The notes: generated by a model from the sequence alone, not told the origin. A stretch of DNA of 64,000 nucleotides from Escherichia coli (GCF_046105845.1 NZ_CP151004.1), one strand, 5' to 3'; positions 9,881-30,144 are shown, counted from the first letter of the stretch. Numbers and translations are program-made.

Positions 9881-10366
9881 ATGAATAACTTTGTTGAAAT
9901 TACCTCAAGAATTGGTCGCATGTACCAAGATTTTCTTATAAGTGGAAAGGGGTCTGGCGACATCATAGAGGAAATTGACAAGCTAAGTGCAGAGCTGAGA
10001 AGGAATGGGTGTGTTAATTCTATCTTTTTTGAAACTTTGCTAAAGCAAGGCTTCATGTTTGACATGATTAATTACAACAAAGTCGCACCCAGTGCTTCGC
10101 AAAAATCATATGTGTACGTTCTGCATGCTGAAGATAGTGGGCTAACAAAAATAGGGTTTAGTCGCAGGGTTAATAAACGAATTTCAGAGATATCTCGCAT
10201 GAGTGGTGGGAAGCTAAATCTAATTGCAAAGATTCCGGCCGATAGAGAGCTTGAAACCAAATTGCACCAAAAATATTACAACTATAGGTCGCACGGGGAG
10301 TGGTTTAGTCTCAATCGTTGTCATTTGAAAGAGCTAAAAGAAATGCCTGGTAACGAACTGAAATAA
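9881..10366 (+). CDS. T5orf172 / GIY-YIG-superfamily domain protein (accessory gene)
   Basis: 161 aa. The C-terminal half YVYVLHAEDSGLTKIGFSRRVNKRISEISR...KLHQKYYNYRSHGEWFSL fits the T5orf172 (MUG113-like) pattern. The N-terminal ~65 aa are unassigned. Visibly AT-richer than flanking genes. Confidence 0.7.
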   Translation: MNNFVEITSRIGRMYQDFLISGKGSGDIIEEIDKLSAELRRNGCVNSIFFETLLKQGFMFDMINYNKVAPSASQKSYVYVLHAEDSGLTKIGFSRRVNKRISEISRMSGGKLNLIAKIPADRELETKLHQKYYNYRSHGEWFSLNRCHLKELKEMPGNELK

Positions 10367-10542
10367 TCCCCGGACTCACTAATTAACGGCAGTACAGCGA
10401 AACGACCCAAGCCAGTAAGTGGGGAAATAACACTGGCAGCCACTGAAAGATGAACCTCCTGCCTTATGGCAAAAAAGATTCTTTGTGGCGGCGGACTGAT
10501 GGAAGGACATCCTAATTTCAGCCAAACATTGAAGGAGTTGTT

Positions 10543-10614
10543 ATGTCAGCAGAAGGTTTCAATAACCCATCAAAATTCCGGGATGAGTGGGATAGCAGCG
10601 TAAAGAGTAAGTGA
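10543..10614 (+). CDS. Possible 23-aa micro-ORF
   Basis: MSAEGFNNPSKFRDEWDSSVKSK. AAGGAG lies 5 nt upstream of the ATG. There is no other support. Confidence 0.25.
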   Translation: MSAEGFNNPSKFRDEWDSSVKSK

Positions 10615-10719
10615 TGCCATCACAAAAGCCATTCCCTACAGAGTGGCTTTGATAATGGCTTATACCCTACACGGGATAACTTAACTGATATCCCTTTTAA
10701 CGGATAAACGGAGCCAACA

Positions 10720-10962
10720 ATGGCAGAGATTATTCCCATGACTGAAGAACAGAAATTCCAGTTAGAGATTTACAAACTGGTCATGAACCAGAACGCAGCC
10801 GCAGAAGAAGCATTTCAGTTCATTGGCACTGACGAACTGAAGCTTGAGCTATTCAAAATTCACTTCCAGTCAGGCGGCGCTAATTCAGATATCACGACCC
10901 GCACTATCGAAGCGGTGCGTAAATCGAAGGAAGCGTTAGACCTGTTCACTACCGGAGCATGA
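10720..10962 (+). CDS. Hypothetical 80-aa protein (same size and position as P22 orf80, from memory)
   Basis: ORF-track protein with a GGAG-type RBS (ACGGAGCCAACAATG), in the lysis-to-terminase interval. Confidence 0.6.
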   Translation: MAEIIPMTEEQKFQLEIYKLVMNQNAAAEEAFQFIGTDELKLELFKIHFQSGGANSDITTRTIEAVRKSKEALDLFTTGA

Positions 10963-10964
10963 TG

Positions 10965-11143
10965 TGAGCCGCGTAATCAATTTGGGTAAGGAGAAGAAAT
11001 TCCCAATTACTCAAGAGCTATACGAGAGGCTGGAAAGCGTCATCCATGATTACGATGGTGAAATCAGTTTATGCGAGGCGATTGGTACACTCGAATTGCT
11101 GAAGCAGTCACTGATTGAAGGCGCGAAAGAGTCCTTAACCTGA
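10965..11143 (+). CDS. Hypothetical 59-aa protein (P22 orf59a-like by size and position)
   Basis: Hand-translated from a GTG 2 nt after the previous stop: VSRVINLGKEKKFPITQELYERLESVIHDYDGEISLCEAIGTLELLKQSLIEGAKESLT. Just below the ORF-track cutoff. Confidence 0.45.
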
Positions 11144-11168
11144 AATAACGATTAAGTGAGATGAATAT

Positions 11169-11195
11169 GGCAGCACTCAACATGCTGCCTTTTAT
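11169..11195. terminator. Bidirectional hairpin terminator between convergent units
   Basis: GGCAGCA-loop-TGCTGCC with a T-run on the + strand. It sits between the + strand small ORFs and the - strand two-gene unit. Confidence 0.6.
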
Positions 11196-11206
11196 CGTTG
11201 ATTAGT

Positions 11207-11446
11207 TTAACCGCGAGCTTCACGACCGTTTTCGTCTTCAGGCACACGGAAACGCCAGTACTTGTCTGGCTTAACCCAAACGACATCATTGCCACTATCA
11301 ACTCTAAATGCATTTATAACTTTGGTTGAAAGTACTTGGTTGCCATCTGCATTTTCTTTCAGGTGCTGCTCATTACCTGTCTTTATCAGGTAATCGACAA
11401 CATCTTGTTGATAAAGGCATCTGTCAGTTACTAATGCGGACATCAT
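11207..11446 (-). CDS. Hypothetical 79-aa protein
   Basis: ORF-track protein, second gene of the reverse-strand unit. I recognise no family. Confidence 0.55.
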   Translation of the reverse strand: MMSALVTDRCLYQQDVVDYLIKTGNEQHLKENADGNQVLSTKVINAFRVDSGNDVVWVKPDKYWRFRVPEDENGREARG

Positions 11447-22096: not shown

Positions 22097-23512
22097 ATGG
22101 CTACGTGGCAACAGGGTATTAATTCTGGTGGTTTTCTGGCTGGCATCGGTACGCAAAATGAGAATGCGCCAAAGGCAAGCGACATTAACGCAACGCTTGG
22201 TCTGATCCGCGAAAACAATGAACTGGCTCGCTCAGGTGCAAATAACGTTAGTCTGACCGCGTTACGTGGTCTGGCTGGAGTTGCTGATATTTACAATCAG
22301 GAACAGCAACAGAAAGCGATTAGTGCGTTCAATAAGGTTCACGCTGATGCATGGGCTTCTGGTGATCCATCGGGACTATTTAAGTTTGCCCAGGAAAATC
22401 CAGCGTTTGTTGCACAGGCACAACAGGCGTTTTCCGGTCTTAATGATCAGCAACGCAACGATATGGGCGATTTAGCCATGAGGGCTAACGTCGCTCTTTC
22501 TCAGGGACCGGAAGCCTACAGTAAATTCATTACTGACAACAAGGACAGGTTAAATCGCGTGGGGGCGAATGCTGACTGGATGATTCAGACAGGTATCCAG
22601 AATCCAGAGCAGCTATCACACATGCTGACTACTATGTCTCTCGGTGCGCTTGGACCAGAAAAGGCGTTTGCTGTTCAGGACAAGATGGCTGGTCGTGAAA
22701 TTGACCGAGGCAAACTTGCAGAGACAATCCGCAGCAATCAGGCTGGAGAAGCACTTCAGGCGAGAGGGCAAAACCTTTCCTATCAGTCAGCAATGACTGG
22801 ACACAATATCGCAGCACAACGCTTGGCTCTGGATCAGCAAGAGTTCGGGTTTAAGATGCAGCAAGCGCAGGAAAAGGCTCAGCAGTTGATTAGCGAAGCA
22901 CCTAAGCTGTCAGTAAACATGGAAAAAGGCATCGAGACGGCTGTAAACAATGCCACAGCATCATCAAACTCAGCCAATTCCATGAGTGCGCTTGCTCAAC
23001 AGTTCAGAGCAGAAAAACCAACGACAGGTTTGTTCGGTAACGCACAGAACATGTTCGCAAAACTTACCGGAAGCGATACGACATTGCGTGATTTGCGCAT
23101 TCGCCAAAATGCCCTTGTTAACAGTCAGGTTCTTAAATTCCTACCTCCCGGCCCAGCAACGGATAAAGACGTTGAGATCGTTAGACAGGGTGCGCCAACT
23201 GACATGGATAACCCTGAGACGGTCGCAAGATGGCTTGATGCAATGGCAAACCTTGAGCGACGAAACGCGCAGTTTAATGAGTTTAAAGCTGAGTGGATGA
23301 GCGCGAATGGCAACCCTGGACAATCGCGTAATGGCGGTCAGATATTGGGGTTGGATGTTAAAAAAGGTGAATCATTGGGGAGTGCCGTTAAGCGGTATAT
23401 GTCATTGAATACTGACGCAGCGCCAGCACAAGATTCGATACCTTCAGGAGAACCACGGAATCAGGTTGGATCATATACCTCAAAATCAGGCATTCAATTT
23501 ACGGTGGAATGA
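22097..23512 (+). CDS. Ejection protein, P22 gp20 analogue
   Basis: 471 aa (P22 gp20 size), in the expected position. Confidence 0.75.
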
Positions 23513-25350
23513 TGAAAGTAACTGCAAACGGAAAGACATTTACCTTCCCTGATGGTACGAGCACGGAAGATATTGGCACCGCCATTGATGAGTATTTTGC
23601 TGGTCAGGCTGTTCAGCAACAAACAGTTAATCAGGCCAATAATGCACCAACACGGGAAGAACCATCATTGATGCAACAAGCTGGCGATTGGCTCACAGGT
23701 GGTCAAAGTGCAGGGCAAATTGCAGAGCAGGCTGGTCGTGGTCTGGTAAACATACCATTTGACGTATTGCAGGGTGGCGCAAGTCTGATTAATGCAATCA
23801 GCCAGGGGCTTGGTGGCCCCAAGGTTTTGGACGATGTCTATCGTCCAGTAGATCGACCAACAGACCCTTATGCGCAAGCTGGAGAAACAATTGGCGGGTA
23901 TTTAGTTCCAGGAGTTGGAACTGCAGGAAGCATGGCTATTGGATCACTGGCAGAAGCCGCAAACCAGAAAGGCGATTTCGCGCAAAATGCAGCCATAAAC
24001 GCCGGAGTTAACCTTGCCGCTCAGGGTGTTCTTTCCGCAGCAGCAAAGGGAATAGGGCGTGGAATAACGGCTATAAAAGGCGATATCGCGCCAGAAGTAG
24101 CGAAAAAAATTGCCACCTCAGAATCGATGGGCGTGACACCAATGACATCTGATGTTATCCCGCCGAAAAATGCTTTCACTCGCGGCCTTACTCAGGATGC
24201 CGAGGGGGCTTTGCTCGGGACAGGCTCAAAGCGAGCGGAGCAATATGCAACGCGTAGTAAGTTGGTAAGTAATTATTTTGACCGTTTTGGTGAGTACAAC
24301 CCGGATGATGTGGTGAAATCTCTGACCACCACGTTAAGGGGACGGAAGGATGCCGCTGGCGCTGTTATCAATGACGTCACCAATAAAATGGGTAATGCCG
24401 CAGTTGATACCACAAACACTATGAATGCTCTGAATACAGCGATCGCAAGACAGGAACGGCTTGGGACGTCTGCCAATCAAAGCCTGCTTACATCCTTGCG
24501 TAACCTACGTGAAGAATTAGCAAACCCTGCAACTGATTTGGATGTTACGTTTGATCTCTTGCGTCAGCACAGAACAGCATTTAGATCTAATGTTCAGGGA
24601 GATGCTATGGTCTTCCCCAACCAGGCAAAAGCAGCTACCAATATGGTAGAGAATGCAATGTCAAAAGACCTTCGTAACGCAGTTGCTAAAAACCTCGGTG
24701 CATCAGACGCAGCAAAATACCTTAAAGCAAATTCAGATTATGCAAACGTTTATAATAAGGTGCTTAATAAAAACATTGCTAACAAGCTCAACAAGGCAAG
24801 CAGTGAAGCCAGTCCTGAACTTATAAATACCGTTGTATTAAGCAGAAAACCATCTGACGTGAAACGAATCTGGAGCGCATTGGATGATAAAGGGAAAGAT
24901 GCTATGCGTGCAGCTTACGTCAGCAAAATAGCGGAAAAGGCCGGTGACTCTCCAGCCAAGTTCATCACTGAAGTTAATAAGCTGAAATCTCAGTCAGGCG
25001 GTGAAATTTACAACACTATTTTTTCTGGAAAGCACATGAAAGAACTTGATGCTCTTCATGAAGTTCTGCAGCAAACAGCAAGGTCAGACACCGCAAATGT
25101 AGTAACTCAGACGGGGCAATCGCAAGCCAACAGGATAAGGACGATTGGCGCAACTGCGACTCTTGGCGTATCAATGGGGCTTGAGGCTGGTTTCGGTGCA
25201 ATGATGCGCTTGTATGAGTCTAAAGCAGCAAGAAACATGCTTCTCCGCCTTGCAAACGTCAAGCCTGGAACTCCGGCATATGAGCGAGCGTTAAATCAGG
25301 CTGCTAACGCCGTTCGCCCTCTCCTAACTAACGAAGCTACCAGGCAGTAG
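23509..25350 (+). CDS. Ejection protein, P22 gp16 analogue
   Basis: 613 aa (P22 gp16 is about 609 aa). ATGA overlap with the preceding gene. Confidence 0.75.
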
Positions 25351-25369
25351 AAATGAACGCCAAGGAAGG

Positions 25370-25699
25370 CTATTTAATTCTCTTTTCAATGGCTGCAATT
25401 ATTGCTTTTCCTGATGTTTCAGGAGATTTTGTAGCCATATAAGACGAAAAAATCATGTCGGTCATTCTTTCATAACTTACTATTTCCCACTTAGCCAATG
25501 CATGGGACAGTTTGTAGTTGTCATCAGTTAGTGCCCTTATGGAATTTTTTAAGTGTTTATTCTCTTCTGTTAATCGCGCAATTTTTGTATCAATTTCATG
25601 TGAGCGATCTAATTCCTTAACCTGTTTCTTGAGGGCAGCTAACCCTGCATATAGTACGCAACAGGATATCCCAAGAGCGAGTACGACTATTTCTAACAC
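25370..25699 (-). CDS. Hypothetical membrane-anchored coiled-coil protein (sieA slot)
   Basis: 109 aa. GTG start 5 nt after TAAGGAGG. N-terminal TM helix LEIVVLALGISCCVLYAGLAAL, then KKQVKELDRSHEIDTKIARLTEENKHLKNSIRALTDDNYKL. AT-rich. Confidence 0.7.
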   Translation of the reverse strand: MLEIVVLALGISCCVLYAGLAALKKQVKELDRSHEIDTKIARLTEENKHLKNSIRALTDDNYKLSHALAKWEIVSYERMTDMIFSSYMATKSPETSGKAIIAAIEKRIK

Positions 25700-25817
25700 A
25701 CCAACCTCCTTAGTTTTTCGCAGGATACCATGAAAAAAGTAAACATCTTTTGCCTACTTCACATTTGAATGGTTTGTCATTAGGATGTTTCCGGTTTTTT
25801 CAAATATGGAAATTGAT

Positions 25818-26237
25818 ATGAAGAGGATTATCGGCGTTGTTGCTGGCGCTATATTGTTATCTGGGTGCGCAACTATTGTTGGTGACGAAACACAGCTCGT
25901 GCAAGTGAACAGCAATCCTTCCGGTGCGAGCTTTAAAGTAAAAGACGAATCAGGCGTGATTGTTGCGCAAGGCAAGACCCCGCAAGGAGTAACTCTTGCC
26001 AAGTCAGATGGGAGTTATTTTGGCAAAAAGAGCTACCAGATCACTATGGAAAAGGATGGGTACGAACCAGTTACCCTGCCAATCAAAGCCAATGCTAATG
26101 GTTGGTATATTGGTGGAAACCTTGTGTTTGGTGGGTTAATTGGTTGGCTTGCTGTAGATCCTTTTAATGGTGGGATGTATACCTTGAAGCCAAAAGAGGC
26201 AAACGCATCTCTTATACCATCAACAAAGCAAGACTAA
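25818..26237 (+). CDS. Lipoprotein with PEGA-like domain and C-terminal glycine zipper
   Basis: 139 aa from MKRIIGVVAGAILLSGC (lipobox). VQVNSNPSGASFKVKDESGVIVAQGKTPQGVTL...KDGYEPVTL is PEGA-like. GWYIGGNLVFGGLIGWLAVDPFNGG is a Gly zipper. The ORF track starts earlier, at 25785. Confidence 0.75.
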   Translation: MKRIIGVVAGAILLSGCATIVGDETQLVQVNSNPSGASFKVKDESGVIVAQGKTPQGVTLAKSDGSYFGKKSYQITMEKDGYEPVTLPIKANANGWYIGGNLVFGGLIGWLAVDPFNGGMYTLKPKEANASLIPSTKQD

Positions 26238-26245
26238 TAAATAGG

Positions 26246-26268
26246 ACCCACCTTCAGGTGGGTTTTTT
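26246..26268. terminator. Bidirectional terminator between the lipoprotein gene and mnt
   Basis: ACCCACC-TTCA-GGTGGGT followed by TTTTTT. It overlaps the 3' end of mnt. Confidence 0.75.
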
Positions 26269-26505
26269 GTACAAATCCTTCAGCGTATCAAACACCATCT
26301 TCTTAACAAGCTCTGACTGCTCATCAGCGAGTCGTTCTGCATCGTCGCGATATCCAGTCACAGGCGATGGTTTTGATAGAGCATCTTGGACGATTTGTAA
26401 CAACTCGGAGTTCATTGATCTCCCATTCGCCTCCGCCCTGAATTTTAATTTCTCCCTTACTTCCATAGGCATACGGAAGTTAAAGTGCGGATCATCTCTA
26501 GCCAT
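26254..26505 (-). CDS. mnt: Mnt repressor (immI, ribbon-helix-helix)
   Basis: 83 aa, MARDDPHFNFRMPMEVREKLKFRAEANGRSMNSELLQIVQDAL... It matches remembered P22 Mnt. Confidence 0.95.
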   Translation of the reverse strand: MARDDPHFNFRMPMEVREKLKFRAEANGRSMNSELLQIVQDALSKPSPVTGYRDDAERLADEQSELVKKMVFDTLKDLYKKPT

Positions 26506-26527: not shown

Positions 26528-26580
26528 TTGACATGATAGAAGCACTCTACTATATTCTCAATAGGTCCACCGTGGACCTA
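26528..26580 (+). promoter_or_regulatory. Pant promoter with Arc and Mnt operators
   Basis: -35 TTGACA (26528-33), -10 TATATT (26551-56). Arc operator ATGATAGAAGCACTCTACTAT (26533-53). Mnt operator is a perfect palindrome, AGGTCCAC-C-GTGGACCT (26563-79). Confidence 0.85.
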
Positions 26581-26757: not shown

Positions 26758-26825
26758 AGTTGAAGCCCCAACTGCGGGAACAGTCAGGGCTTCGGTATCA
26801 ACAAATCGGATTAGGAAATATTGAC
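26758..26825 (-). ncRNA. sar: Putative sar antisense RNA (covers the ant RBS)
   Basis: Minus-strand -10 TATACT (26832-37) just inside ant. The transcript would cross the ant SD/ATG and end at hairpin GAAGCCC...GGGCTTC (26762-93). The predicted ~68 nt agrees with the remembered size of P22 sar. Confidence 0.45.
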
Positions 26826-27704
26826 ATGAAAAGTATAGCAAAGGCACAAAACGATTTCACCATCTTCAAATTCGGCGACAGTGAAATCCGCGTCATCAAC
26901 AAATGCGGTGAGCCGTGGTTTGTAGCAAAAGATGTTTGTGATGCTTTAACCCTGACTAACTCACGCAAGGCGCTTACTGCACTTGATGACGATGAAAAGG
27001 GAGTAACTTTAAGTTACACCCTTGGTGGTGAGCAGAATCTAAGCATTGTTAGCGAATCAGGTATGTATACATTGGTTCTGCGCTGCCGCGATGCTGTCAA
27101 TAAAGGTTCGGTCCCGCACAAATTCCGCAAGTGGGTAACAGCAGAAGTTCTACCTTCAATTCGCAAACATGGCGAGTATGTGAAAGGCAAGAAAACCACT
27201 GTTGAGGAAAGAACGCCGCTACGCGATGCAGTAAACATGCTGGTAGGAAAGAAAGGACTTCGCTATGACGATGCATACAATATGGTTCATCAGCGTTTTG
27301 GTATTGACAGCATTGATGAACTTTCAATTGAACAAATCCCGCTGGCCGTAGAGTACATCCACAGGGTAGTGCTTGAAGGCGAGTTTATCGGCAAACAAGA
27401 GAAGAAAGCAAACGAGCTTTCTGCAAAAGAAGCAAACAGCCTTGTATGGCTATGGGATTATGCTAACCGTTCACAGGCATTATTCCGCGAACTGTATCCG
27501 GCATTAAAACAAATTCAATCGAACTATTCCGGCAGATGCTACGACTACGGTCATGAATTCTCGTATGTTATCGGAATGGCGAGAGACGTTTTAATCAATC
27601 ACACACGAGATGTTGATATCAATGAGCCAGACGGACCAGCGAATCTTTCCGCATGGATGAGACTTAAGAATAAAGAATTACCTCCTTCAGTACATAACTA
27701 CTGA
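26826..27704 (+). CDS. ant: Antirepressor Ant (Bro-N-type N-terminal domain)
   Basis: 292 aa from [41 protein letters not shown]. The ORF-track start at 26760 is a TTG in the arc-ant spacer. Confidence 0.85.
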
Positions 27705-27804: not shown

Positions 27805-30144
27805 ATGACAGATTCAATAAATGCCAATGTTGTGGTAAGCATGCCTTCGCAACTCTTCACTATGGCTCGTTCTTTTAAAGCCGTAGCCAATGGCAAAATT
27901 TATATCGGTAAAATTGACACGGACCCGGTAAATCCTGAAAACCAGATTCAGGTTTATGTGGAGAACGAAGACGGTTCTCACGTTCCTGTTTCGCAACCAA
28001 TAATCATTAACGCTGCTGGATATCCGGTATATAACGGACAGATTGCCAAATTCGTTACCGTGCAAGGCCATTCTATGGCTGTTTATGATGCGTATGGTTC
28101 GCAGCAGTTCTATTTTCCGAATGTGTTGAAGTACGACCCTGATCAGTTTTCCTTGTGGGCAAAGGGAAATTTCGAAATATCAGAATACAGTCGAATAATT
28201 GATGGCGATTTTGCGTCTGGATATACTATTACCAATAGAAAACAGGTCCTTAAATACACTGATGGACTTTATTACCAATGGCTTGGTTCCCTTCCGAAAA
28301 CTGTAGCGCCAACAGAAAATCCAAATCTTAATAGTCAATGGTTATGCGTCATGGATGGTTCTAATTTCAATGATGCGATCATGTGCAGTCGCTACATTCA
28401 TAGCGGAGTTGACTGCGCATCGGTAATAAATAAATTACAAATATTATCAGAATATAAAAGGGTTCCTCTAGATTTTAGAGGTATAGATGTGATCTCGTTT
28501 AGTGGTAGTGTGCAAATTGGCGACTGGTTTCATTGGATTGGTGCAGGGAAGTCAAGTACTACTATCAGACCAATCTCACTAACAAAGCAAGACGTTGAGA
28601 ATAATGGCTTTGGCTATTACTCTTGGTTCATCCGTAAGAACCCTGACAAGGATCTATATTTTGCGATGCTGCAGGATATTTGTTTTGATGGACAATACCA
28701 AGACGGTTACGAAATAAATAACATTGCGCCGCAGAAGATTATTCGCGCATTCTGCTGGCATTTCAATAACGGTGCCATTGGTCGCAATATTACTGCTTTA
28801 AGATGTCATTTCAAAAACTGCCCACATGAAGCATGGGAAGGATACACAACTAATGGTGGAATGATTGATGGTATTAATTATTTGTATTGTTCATCAGAGG
28901 GAACAGACCCAATGCTTACCGCTGTTGGATTCAATGCATTTAAGTGTATGAATGGCTCTATTGATTCACCTGGCGAATACGGTACATATACCATTAAAAA
29001 CATCTTCAGTTTCGGCAACACTGCTTTCGGCCATCGTACATTGAATGACTTTAAGAGAGGTTGCGAAAATTGGGTTATCGATGCATGCCAAACATTCGAC
29101 ATGAACGATTGCCATCACTCTACGGATGGTTCACGCCGTGGTGTATTCCTTGCTGGCAATATCGGAATTCAAACAGGAAAATCAAAAGCAACTAAAAATT
29201 TTCTTGAAATTCAAGGAGAGAATATTGATGTTCTTGGTGGAAAGTATGTTGCTGCAGCAACCAGTGTGGCTGGCTTGGCTGGTATATTCGTGACTAATTA
29301 CTCGTATCCTTCTGAGTCTACAGACTTCCAATCACAGCACATTCGAATTAAAAATGTCTATGTCGAAAGGGTAAACAATAATGCGGTACGCATTGTCAAT
29401 GGGTATGACATCAACGTTGAAGATATCACGGCTGTTAGCTGTAACGGTGTTGGTGTATCATTCGAATTTGTGCCTGGACTAATTAGCGGAATTGACAATC
29501 AAGAGATAAAACCAAGATTTAACTCTGTAGGTAAGATCATAACTAGTTCGTGTTCAGGTGAAGTGCTTGTAGACAATAACCAAGACGTATTTATCACTGC
29601 CAATAGCCAGAATACAGGAGGTGGTTTTCGTGTTGGAAGAAGTGATGCTGTCCATAGTACTAACCCTCTACCGATGCGTTCCATAGCTGGTCATATTCTA
29701 GCTAATCAGGATAGATTTTTTCAGTCTGTTATATCTATTGCGCCAGAGAAAACAGATGCAACTACAAAGCCTGTAGGTACGCCTTATGCATTCACTCTTA
29801 ACGATAAGAATACCGCATCAGTACAGAGTTTATTAGTGGCAACACTTCGAGTAGCTCAACGAAGCGCTGTCTATGTAAGACTATGGACGTTATCAGAAAC
29901 ATCAATATCATCGGCGGTCATTTTTCGCGAATTGGATTCTACAGGTAATTCGTTATCTAATACTGCAATAAAATTATTATCTGATAATTCGTGGCTTGAG
30001 CGTCAGGCAATATATCATGTTAAAAGATCAGAATGTGTAGCTGTAGAGGTTTTTCTTGCTCCTGCTTGTGATGAACGCATGGATATTTCCTTGACAGGAA
30101 CAACTAGTTTTGCTGATGTTAGAGTAAGTAATTATCCAATCTGA
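27805..30144 (+). CDS. Tailspike (P22 gp9-type head-binding domain plus an unfamiliar receptor-binding region)
   Basis: 779 aa. Residues 1-~115 ([14 protein letters not shown]...[24 protein letters not shown]...[10 protein letters not shown]) align with the P22 gp9 N-terminus. The rest is different and AT-richer. Repetitive beta-helix-like motifs are followed by a ~150-aa C-terminal beta-sandwich-like segment. Confidence 0.9.

Follow-up and report, generated by a model that had tools for sequence, protein, structure and literature searches.

In phage P22 and its relatives, the interval between genes 16 and 9 is a highly variable region, which was described in 2008 as the "ant moron" (PMC2629481). 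The P22 gene sieA, together with 85 bp of upstream DNA, suffices for exclusion; SieA escape mutations lie in the C-terminal region of gp16 and in gp20, and sieA is carried by only 22 of 66 sequenced P22-like phages (Leavitt et al. 2024, PMC10883804). For phage epsilon34, genes 14 and 15 were listed as unknowns, gene 15 having matches to many bacterial genes (PMC2629481). Here we analyzed a stretch of 64,000 nucleotides (nt) from Escherichia coli (GCF_046105845.1, NZ_CP151004.1), hereafter called the window, which contains a P22-like (Lederbergvirus) prophage. Between ejection gene 16 on the left and the repressor gene mnt on the right, this prophage carries a cassette site with two divergent genes, gene 1 on the minus strand and gene 2 on the plus strand.

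An initial annotation of the window placed two open reading frames (ORFs) back to back at this site, separated by a 118-bp gap, and both were recovered at the same positions. The two products had been proposed to form a two-component system for superinfection exclusion or receptor masking. Our results instead make it probable that they are two separate, exchangeable cargo genes (morons) of the ant moron, gene 1 being a candidate SieA-like blocker and gene 2 an envelope lipoprotein of host origin. The two genes and the variable region were on record before, as unknowns: the corresponding PHROG families, phrog_8100 for gene 1 and phrog_6823 for gene 2, are labelled "unknown function", and a literature search by accession or locus tag found nothing for either protein. 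The new point is the start-codon socket that gene 1 shares with sieA.

Gene 1 begins at the sieA start site

The minus-strand position after gene 16 is referred to below as slot A and the plus-strand position before mnt as slot B. The minus-strand sequences upstream of P22 sieA, HK620 hkcB, epsilon34 gene 14, the SE1 homologue and gene 1 were aligned. In this alignment 55 of 91 columns were invariant; these were concentrated in columns 30 to 80 and ended just past a GTG common to all five sequences. The resulting near-invariant segment of about 50 bp reads ATGTT[A/T]ACTTTTTTCATGGTATCCTGC..AAAACTAAGGAGGTTGG[T/C]GTG, and directly beyond the GTG the sequences are unrelated. Gene 1 starts at this GTG (25697-25699), 5 nt after the Shine-Dalgarno sequence TAAGGAGG (25705-25712). 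In P22, the conserved junction takes in the proximal half of what the record annotates as the sieA promoter; the junction was also found in the O111 and EC11 prophages and was present in 96 of 5,426 complete E. coli genomes. Judged by its strand, position, upstream segment, Shine-Dalgarno sequence and GTG, gene 1 was shown at the level of sequence to be an exact replacement of the sieA reading frame. The initial annotation had assigned the locus to the sieA slot, and for gene 1 this now holds at nucleotide resolution.

In the P22 record (NC_002371, our locus L006), positions 1817-1907 aligned with positions 25685-25775 of the window, and the annotated sieA GTG is the conserved GTG. The start codon of sieA has been described as uncertain (PMC10883804). 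Because hkcB, epsilon34 gene 14 and gene 1 use the same conserved GTG, this codon is favored as the sieA start. A possible extended -10 element (TGGTATCCT) was seen by eye in the conserved segment and was not counted as evidence.

All slot-A occupants examined have a transmembrane helix, a lipobox or a signal peptide. In E. coli O111:H- 11128 (locus L025, 1995-2363, minus strand), slot A encodes a protein of about 122 amino acids (aa), which has a signal peptide if the conserved GTG is used. The slot-A gene of prophage Gally in strain LF82 (locus L004, 1881-2396, minus strand) encodes a 161-aa lipoprotein with the lipobox LLAGC (phrog_6067), and its transcription in LF82 is well above that of its neighbors. 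This Gally gene has the position and strand of sieA, but the sequence upstream of it could not be aligned with the shared segment.

The gene 1 product is predicted to be a membrane-anchored coiled coil

Residues 1-24 of the gene 1 product form a single hydrophobic segment (Kyte-Doolittle scale, 19-residue window, maximum 2.43). An AlphaFold2 model with a mean predicted local distance difference test score (pLDDT) of 85 showed a continuous helix from residue 2 to residue 90, followed by a second helix at residues 96-108. The sequence, the hydropathy scan and the model agree with the initial description of gene 1, namely a GTG start behind a Shine-Dalgarno sequence, one N-terminal transmembrane helix and a coiled coil. 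Lys and Arg are absent before the helix, Glu3 is nearly invariant, and four Lys/Arg residues lie just after the helix. From this charge pattern, the positive-inside rule predicts a topology in which the N-terminus is probably outside and the soluble C-terminal part cytoplasmic.

Database comparisons gave little beyond the coiled coil. Sequence profiles of PDB entries matched gene 1 only with leucine zippers (GCN4, Fos and Jun), and Pfam, NCBIfam, PADLOC and PDB together yielded nothing beyond leucine-zipper composition. In PADLOC-DB 2.0, gene 1 had only a coiled-coil-type match (LmuB, E 0.0014, 15.6 bits) and gene 2 had nothing. The earlier statement that neither protein is SieA or a characterized exclusion protein was borne out for SieA, Cor and every PADLOC model, and both products are predicted envelope proteins.

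The gene 1 family is small and strongly conserved at one end. Its C-terminal 40 or so residues are almost invariant (KWEI.SYE.MTDMIF.SYMATKSPETSG..IIAAIE.R), and among relatives from E. coli, Salmonella and Klebsiella, down to 50% identity, 36 columns are invariant, most of them C-terminal. An exhaustive HMMER profile search of 1.84 billion representative proteins listed 8 matches, all of them short relatives or coiled-coil noise; 5 were real representatives of the family, and the conserved C-terminal hairpin matched nothing in that search. Clustering at 90% identity divides the family into 14 groups, and it occurs only in P22-like prophages of Salmonella, E. coli and Klebsiella. Wherever the context was examined, its members converge on the end of gene 16 or overlap it. 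Gene 1 is 83% identical to an ORF that is unannotated in Salmonella phages SE1 and ST160. The ratio of nonsynonymous to synonymous substitution rates (dN/dS) was 0.64 overall; it was 0.12 in the C-terminal part and 0.88 in codons 1-69, both based on small counts. The invariant C-terminal block of gene 1 and the purifying selection on gene 2 (see below) indicate that both are real genes.

The neighboring gp16 is of the P22 type

The gp16 encoded in the window is a mosaic of an epsilon34-like N-terminus and a P22-type C-terminus, the part to which SieA escape mutations map. Its C-terminal 300 aa are 78% identical to those of P22, 97% to those of the O111 prophage and 100% to those of EC11; they are unrelated to the same region of HK620 and epsilon34, and Gally is distant (34%). 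In the gene 1 carriers, the gp16 C-terminal domain is of the P22 type, with 72-100% identity over 300 aa. Because the gp16 C-terminus and the upstream segment are common to them, gene 1, sieA and the gene for the O111 protein are alternatives within identical flanks. An exclusive co-variation of gene 1 with the gp16 type was considered and rejected: it is apparent against HK620 and epsilon34, but it is weakened by P22, which carries sieA, and by the O111 prophage, both of which have the same gp16 type. Between the window and SE1, the synonymous divergence (dS) of gene 1 was 0.12, whereas that of the adjacent gp16 gene was saturated, indicating independent movement of the cassette.

Gene 1 and gene 2 are separate cassettes

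Of the 5,426 complete E. coli genomes, 16 carried gene 1, 123 carried gene 2 and 9 had the two side by side. The partner was therefore missing from 114 of the 123 genomes with gene 2 and from 7 of the 16 with gene 1. The nine genomes with the pair are 99.6-99.9% identical across it, indicating that they represent one recent recombinant lineage. Among phage records, gene 1 was present in 13 and gene 2 in 4 P22-like ones, with no overlap.

The partners also vary. All four combinations of two slot-A and two slot-B genes exist: gene 1 with the lipoprotein gene (the window), gene 1 with hkcC (SE1, also ST160 and others), the hkcB type with the lipoprotein gene (epsilon34) and the hkcB type with hkcC (HK620). 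Further partners of gene 1 are a P63C-domain gene in E. coli EC11 and a gene for a 103-aa secreted protein in Klebsiella, and in one locus (L017) gene 1 stands alone between gene 16 and the tailspike gene. Gene 2, in turn, also occurs with the slot-A genes for the 161-aa lipoprotein (Gally, LF82) and for the 122-aa signal-peptide protein (O111), and the siphoviral prophages with gene 2 relatives carry no gene 1.

Genes 1 and 2 are thus independent cassettes and not a coupled unit. A lack of co-occurrence in other genomes had been named beforehand as grounds for refuting the two-component proposal, and the two genes were for the most part found apart; together with the phage records and the changing partners, this largely refutes that proposal. 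Both genes independently show the variable presence at the same site that is expected of morons. The other mark of a moron, a promoter and terminator of its own with transcription in the lysogen, was found for gene 2 (promoter-like element, terminator and RNA sequencing (RNA-seq) of LF82); gene 1 retains the proximal sieA region, in which the consensus scan detected no promoter.

Gene 2 encodes a predicted outer-membrane lipoprotein

The ORF and lipobox reported for gene 2, a 139-aa lipoprotein with LLSGC, were confirmed in the sequence. The signal peptide, MKRIIGVVAGAILLSG, is followed directly by the lipidated Cys of the lipobox (LLSG/C), and the next residue is Ala. Under the Lol sorting rule, Ala after the lipidated Cys leads to outer-membrane targeting, which predicts that the gene 2 product is sorted to the outer membrane.

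The AlphaFold2 model contained a beta-sandwich formed by residues 25-93 and 121-131 (pLDDT >90), and the Gly-rich segment at residues 97-115 was modelled with low confidence. The initial annotation had described the sandwich as PEGA-like and the Gly-rich segment as a glycine zipper. The sandwich itself is confidently modelled, but the score of gene 2 against PEGA (Pfam PF08308) was below the gathering threshold, and structure comparison gave a generic resemblance to sandwiches of the transthyretin, CnaB and PEGA type only. The Gly-rich segment is likewise present, but no Pfam glycine-zipper family was matched at E <= 1, either by gene 2 or across 39 family members, and the likeness to glycine-zipper lipoproteins of the SlyB/Pcp type is one of composition only. 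The Foldseek comparison that had been suggested was run for gene 2, whose model had no match in the PDB at E <= 0.001 and one unnamed relative in BFVD; gene 1 was modelled as a long helix. PDB sequence profiles gave nothing for gene 2, and a literature search for PEGA lipoproteins in prophages returned no relevant result.

Two motifs are strongly conserved in the family, CATIVG at the lipidation site and the invariant, Gly-rich NGWYIGGN..FGGLIGW.VDPFNGGMY. The latter loop is likely to be the functional site of gene 2. Between gene 2 and its epsilon34 counterpart there are 25 synonymous and 3 nonsynonymous differences (dN/dS 0.03), indicating strong purifying selection.

The promoter-like hexamers upstream of gene 2, which are a consensus match only, are kept in Gally (TTCACG ... 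TAAGAT) despite the different slot-A gene. The Gally gene GALLYPH_14, whose protein is identical to that of gene 2, is covered by the LF82 RNA-seq data (PMC9928086, tables S1 and S4). Its level, in log2(fpkm+5), was 9.8-10.5 during growth in culture; inside macrophages it was 11.0 after 1 h and 9.4-9.5 after 6 h, and in stationary LB culture 6.2 and 4.8. The adjoining gene 16 remained at 3.6-4.1 under all conditions (PMC9928086). The large excess over the adjacent gene 16 indicates that GALLYPH_14 is transcribed independently of the late operon in the lysogen.

Gene 2 relatives occur in several prophage types and on chromosomes

Gene 2 corresponds to epsilon34 gene 15 (98% identical) and to GALLYPH_14 of E. 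coli LF82 (100%), and its family has 728 relatives. HK97-like prophages of E. coli have relatives with 68-78% identity at the HK97 gp15 moron site, where they separate the tail chaperone gene from the tape-measure gene. In lambda-like prophages, relatives are placed between tail genes I and J (the HK97 gp22 moron site), and in Proteus prophages they immediately precede the tape-measure gene. When one genome per species was scanned, relatives with 51-60% identity were found in 207 species, the hosts including Erwinia, Pantoea, Photorhabdus, Pasteurellaceae, Halomonadaceae, Shewanella and beta-, zeta- and deltaproteobacteria. The chromosomal relatives have housekeeping neighbors. No conserved operon partner emerged from 80 genomes: no neighbor recurred in more than 12 loci, and the recurrences reflected synteny within genera.

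Some relatives (L022, 2384-2890; P0100, P0107, P0115, P0119 and P0120) have a conserved C-terminal extension of about 30 aa (..IVLL.DVP..L...M..), which the prophage copies do not have. One of these, P0119, is chromosomal and adjoins a gene for an M1-family aminopeptidase. In the HK97-like prophages L007, L009 and L010, a porin cargo gene (Porin_1, Porin_4) lies at about 10260-11420, between tail genes M and L.

The spacer upstream of gene 2 retains a trace of its history. Six codons of hkcC (ATGAAAAAAGTAAACAT) begin a remnant that is joined to the lipoprotein cassette, and the join in epsilon34 is identical to that in the window. These two observations indicate that hkcC was displaced once by the lipoprotein cassette and that the slot-A gene was swapped later. 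HkcC of HK620 (L003, 3040-3405) contains an HExxH motif (IAHECAHMAFD) and may be a small metalloprotease-like protein. The hkcC ORF is intact in P22 (L006, about 1863-2228), where it is unannotated in the RefSeq record.

Organization of the locus

The features of the region are listed in Table 1. The immI region to the right of gene 2 is complete, with mnt, the sar RNA, arc and an antirepressor-sized ORF, and overlapping divergent promoter-like sites were seen in the mnt/arc interval (26528-26561, matching 11/12 and 10/12). An Rfam search gave no known RNA for the spacer that separates the two cassette genes; its only hit was sar, further downstream.

Table 1. Features between gene 16 and the tailspike position in the window (positions counted from its first nucleotide).
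Feature	Position	Strand	Basis or remark
Gene 16, P22 gp16 homologue, ejection (DNA-transfer) protein	23509-25350	+	phrog_770, E 2e-279; left border
Gene 1, 109 aa	25370-25699	-	ORF; phrog_8100, E 1e-69
Conserved junction: TAAGGAGG, GTG and about 47 bp upstream	25696-25746	-	Multi-phage alignment
Intergenic gap between gene 1 and gene 2, 118 bp	25700-25817		Divergent genes on either side
hkcC remnant, 12 codons, the first six ATGAAAAAAGTAAACAT, the rest unrelated to hkcC and ending in a stop	25728-25766	+	Alignment with HK620, SE1 and epsilon34; sequence reading
Promoter-like element upstream of gene 2: TTCACA, 17 nt, TAGGAT	25758-25786	+	Consensus scan, 9/12 matches
Gene 2, 139-aa lipoprotein	25818-26237	+	phrog_6823, E 6e-86
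Bidirectional intrinsic terminator, ends gene 2 (+) and mnt (-)	26246-26268		Hairpin -14.5 kcal/mol, z = -3.0
mnt repressor	26254-26505	-	Pfam Arc (103.9 bits), Repressor_Mnt (67.6 bits); right border
sar antisense RNA, full-length	26758-26824	-	Rfam RF00262, 71.6 bits
Antirepressor-sized ORF	26760-27704		Part of immI region
Long ORF at tailspike position	27805-30144		Position

Two statements on composition and signals held in part. Both genes had been called visibly AT-richer than their surroundings. This applies to gene 1 (37% GC) and the spacer (34%), but gene 2 (45%) is close to its flanks, gene 16 (47.6%) and mnt (45%). The strong terminator that had been attributed to gene 2 is a real hairpin, but it is bidirectional and mnt uses it too. 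The scan flagged the hairpin on the minus strand, and the epsilon34 record annotates the same element as a rho-independent terminator.

Proposed functions and alternative explanations

The observations fit a scheme in which each gene would have a role of its own. Gene 1 is one of at least five unrelated envelope proteins that use the same expression socket, convergent with the 3' end of gene 16. Its product would be anchored in the inner membrane by the N-terminal helix, with the leucine-zipper stalk and the C-terminal helix hairpin facing the cytoplasm, and when made by the prophage it might hinder, at the inner membrane, the entry of DNA from superinfecting P22-like phages, as SieA does, by means of a different protein. 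That gene 1 has a phage-directed function in some form appears possible, though short of probable. Gene 2 is a free-standing lipoprotein gene that several prophage types captured from a family widespread on proteobacterial chromosomes. Its product may act by itself, as a lysogenic-conversion factor of the outer membrane or periplasm, either altering the envelope to the benefit of the host or shielding a conserved component of the envelope that is exploited by phages. A general function in the envelope, or one that benefits the host, seems more likely than a specific receptor mask.

Several points weigh against this scheme. An exclusion role of gene 1 is a hypothesis suggested by three things, position, shared expression signals and membrane location, and the predicted topology follows from a rule of thumb applied to charges alone. 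The N-terminal two-thirds of gene 1 are near-neutral (codons 1-69, from the small counts given above). The lipoprotein cassette of the window and of epsilon34 has taken the place of the distal portion of the sieA promoter as annotated, with its -35 region, so expression of gene 1 from the prophage is not assured, and a consensus scan of the spacer found no promoter to drive this gene. Elsewhere slot A holds a lipoprotein or a secreted protein, for which a SieA-type mode of action is impossible, and the socket may accept any envelope cargo. For gene 2, identity within the family is still 51-60% between enterobacterial phages and Zetaproteobacteria or Deltaproteobacteria; because it is conserved so widely, a general envelope role is favored over specific masking of a phage receptor. 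Moreover, GALLYPH_14 is absent from the list of morons drawn up by the LF82 authors (PMC9928086). Their criterion used LB samples, in which the gene was 3.3-fold over background against a 5-fold cut-off, and this accounts for its absence.

The other explanations differ mainly in how much of the locus they direct at phages. At one end, the TAAGGAGG-N5-GTG segment would be a dedicated, exchangeable exclusion socket whose occupants (SieA, HkcB/epsilon34 gp14, the gene 1 family, the Gally 161-aa lipoprotein and the O111 122-aa secreted protein) are alternative exclusion determinants with differing ejection-protein specificities; gene 1 would then target the C-terminal domain of P22-type gp16 from the cytoplasmic side of the inner membrane. 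If true, this would explain the replacement of SieA in the roughly two-thirds of P22-like phages without sieA, and we consider it unlikely. At the other end, both genes might be host-benefit cargo comparable to bor and lom, acting in stress, serum or macrophage survival with no role toward phages. The widely conserved chromosomal family of gene 2 with its housekeeping neighbors, the high expression of the LF82 orthologue in growing cells and inside macrophages, and the porin cargo near gene 2 relatives in other prophages are all in line with this possibility, as are host-adaptive morons such as Bor in a neighboring LF82 prophage (LF82 paper, PMC9928086). However, the gene 1 family occurs only in P22-like prophages, at the sieA socket behind a P22-type gene 16, which suits a role toward phages better than a general one for the host, and by position and the annotation "moron product" gene 2 relatives occupy the site of HK97 gp15. 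HK97 gp15 is reportedly, going by the title of Cumby 2012 as cited in PMC10883804, an exclusion protein. A purely host-directed role for both genes is on balance somewhat unlikely. A joint action of genes 1 and 2 across the envelope, as a two-component system for superinfection exclusion or receptor masking, appears very improbable. The genes are adjacent and divergent, the pair is intact in nine E. coli genomes, and a membrane coiled coil with a lipoprotein is loosely spanin-like (weak PHROG Rz-like matches, E 0.015 and 0.064). Against this, those nine genomes are a single lineage, each gene mostly occurs without the other in E. coli, and no sequenced phage has both. Gene 2 relatives are found without gene 1 on chromosomes and in siphoviral prophages, and L017 has gene 1 alone; the identical lipoprotein join in epsilon34, next to a different slot-A gene, indicates that the pairing arose from the later swap. 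Furthermore, the soluble part of gene 1 is predicted to be cytoplasmic and the lipoprotein periplasmic or outer-membrane.

Gene 1 has also to be considered by itself. FtsB combines a transmembrane helix with a leucine zipper in about 105 aa, which is the architecture of gene 1, and in Pfam gene 1 matches DivIC (17.5 bits, cut-off 28.9) and ZapB below threshold. Gene 1 could thus be a modulator of cell division (FtsB/DivIC- or ZapB-like) or a membrane-tethered abortive-infection or toxic effector, and such cargo is plausible, since P22 carries the abortive-type gene sieB (PMC10883804). All of these matches, however, are sub-threshold and reflect coiled-coil composition, PADLOC gave only coiled-coil noise, and the invariant C-terminal hairpin matches nothing, so that we regard this assignment as quite improbable. 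It is extremely improbable that gene 1 is a non-functional ORF, arising by chance or decaying in an AT-rich spacer. Its absence from the SE1 and ST160 annotations, the overall dN/dS of 0.64 with 0.88 in codons 1-69, and the copies in ST-29, ST-87 and SW-70, which are broken into two or three tblastn pieces, would be in accord with decay. The gene has, however, a perfect Shine-Dalgarno sequence with the 5-nt spacing to GTG that it has in common with sieA, and relatives in E. coli, Salmonella and Klebsiella with as little as 50% identity retain its full length. Its C-terminal dN/dS is 0.12; it forms a PHROG family of its own, and PGAP annotates it in E. coli.

We therefore retain the view of gene 1 as a candidate SieA-like blocker and of gene 2 as a separate, host-derived lipoprotein. 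The start codon and ribosome-binding site of sieA also serve gene 1, HkcB and at least one further protein, and these form a defined set of candidates that can be tested with the hybrid phages and escape mutants available for SieA. Gene 2 is no partner of gene 1; it is a host-derived lipoprotein gene that several prophage families captured independently, and its orthologue is strongly expressed in a lysogen of a Crohn's-disease-associated E. coli strain (LF82), including inside macrophages. If neither gene has a phenotype, the locus is ordinary prophage cargo.

Comparison with described phage proteins

P22 SieA and gene 1 are alike in position, strand, upstream segment, Shine-Dalgarno sequence and GTG, and both adjoin a P22-type gp16 C-terminus. 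Both are also inner-membrane proteins, by prediction in the case of gene 1, with the conserved part in the cytoplasm (for SieA, PMC10883804). They nevertheless belong to different families (phrog_7745 and phrog_8100), the motif FxRYPxEAxxFNK is absent from gene 1, and no sequence similarity was seen, without a direct comparison of gene 1 with SieA. SieA has 160-164 aa and three transmembrane segments in the same hydropathy scan, whereas gene 1 has 109 aa, one such segment, a leucine zipper and another C-terminus. Exclusion activity has been shown for SieA; gene 1 is a candidate for it only.

HkcB of HK620 and gp14 of epsilon34 (phrog_5962) resemble gene 1 in slot, GTG, Shine-Dalgarno sequence, length (107-109 aa) and the combination of a hydrophobic helix with a coiled coil, but they sit beside a different type of gp16 C-terminus. 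Homology between gene 1 and HkcB was considered and rejected: BLASTP gave no match, the cross-match to phrog_5962 had an E of 0.011, and HkcB was not recovered by the exhaustive profile search, so the two are regarded as analogues.

An Rz/Rz1-like two-component spanin was likewise rejected, since genes 1 and 2 are divergently oriented, occupy the interval from gene 16 to mnt and occur independently of each other, and the matches are coiled-coil noise. The lipoprotein of gene 2 is a 123-aa beta-sandwich, unlike the short, proline-rich o-spanins. At the sites of HK97 gp15 and gp22, where gene 2 relatives occur, no sign of kinship with these proteins was seen, without a direct sequence comparison; HK97 gp15 is an inner-membrane protein of only about 62 aa. 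Cor (phi80/N15) and Llp (T5) are, like gene 2, small phage or prophage lipoproteins predicted to be in the outer membrane. The Cor models NF047972 and phrog_1119 matched gene 2 only in the signal peptide (residues 1-20 or 1-30, E 0.0034 and 0.19), and gene 2 differs from Cor and Llp in being larger, in its beta-sandwich and in its mostly chromosomal family. Bor and Lom of lambda have no homology to gene 2, but they share its character of host-derived envelope cargo that is autonomously expressed from the late or tail regions of prophages. Epsilon34 gene 15, GALLYPH_14 and "protein 15" of vB_EcoP-720R6 are the same as gene 2 (98-100% identical) and occupy the same position before the terminator and mnt, each beside a slot-A partner that differs from gene 1.

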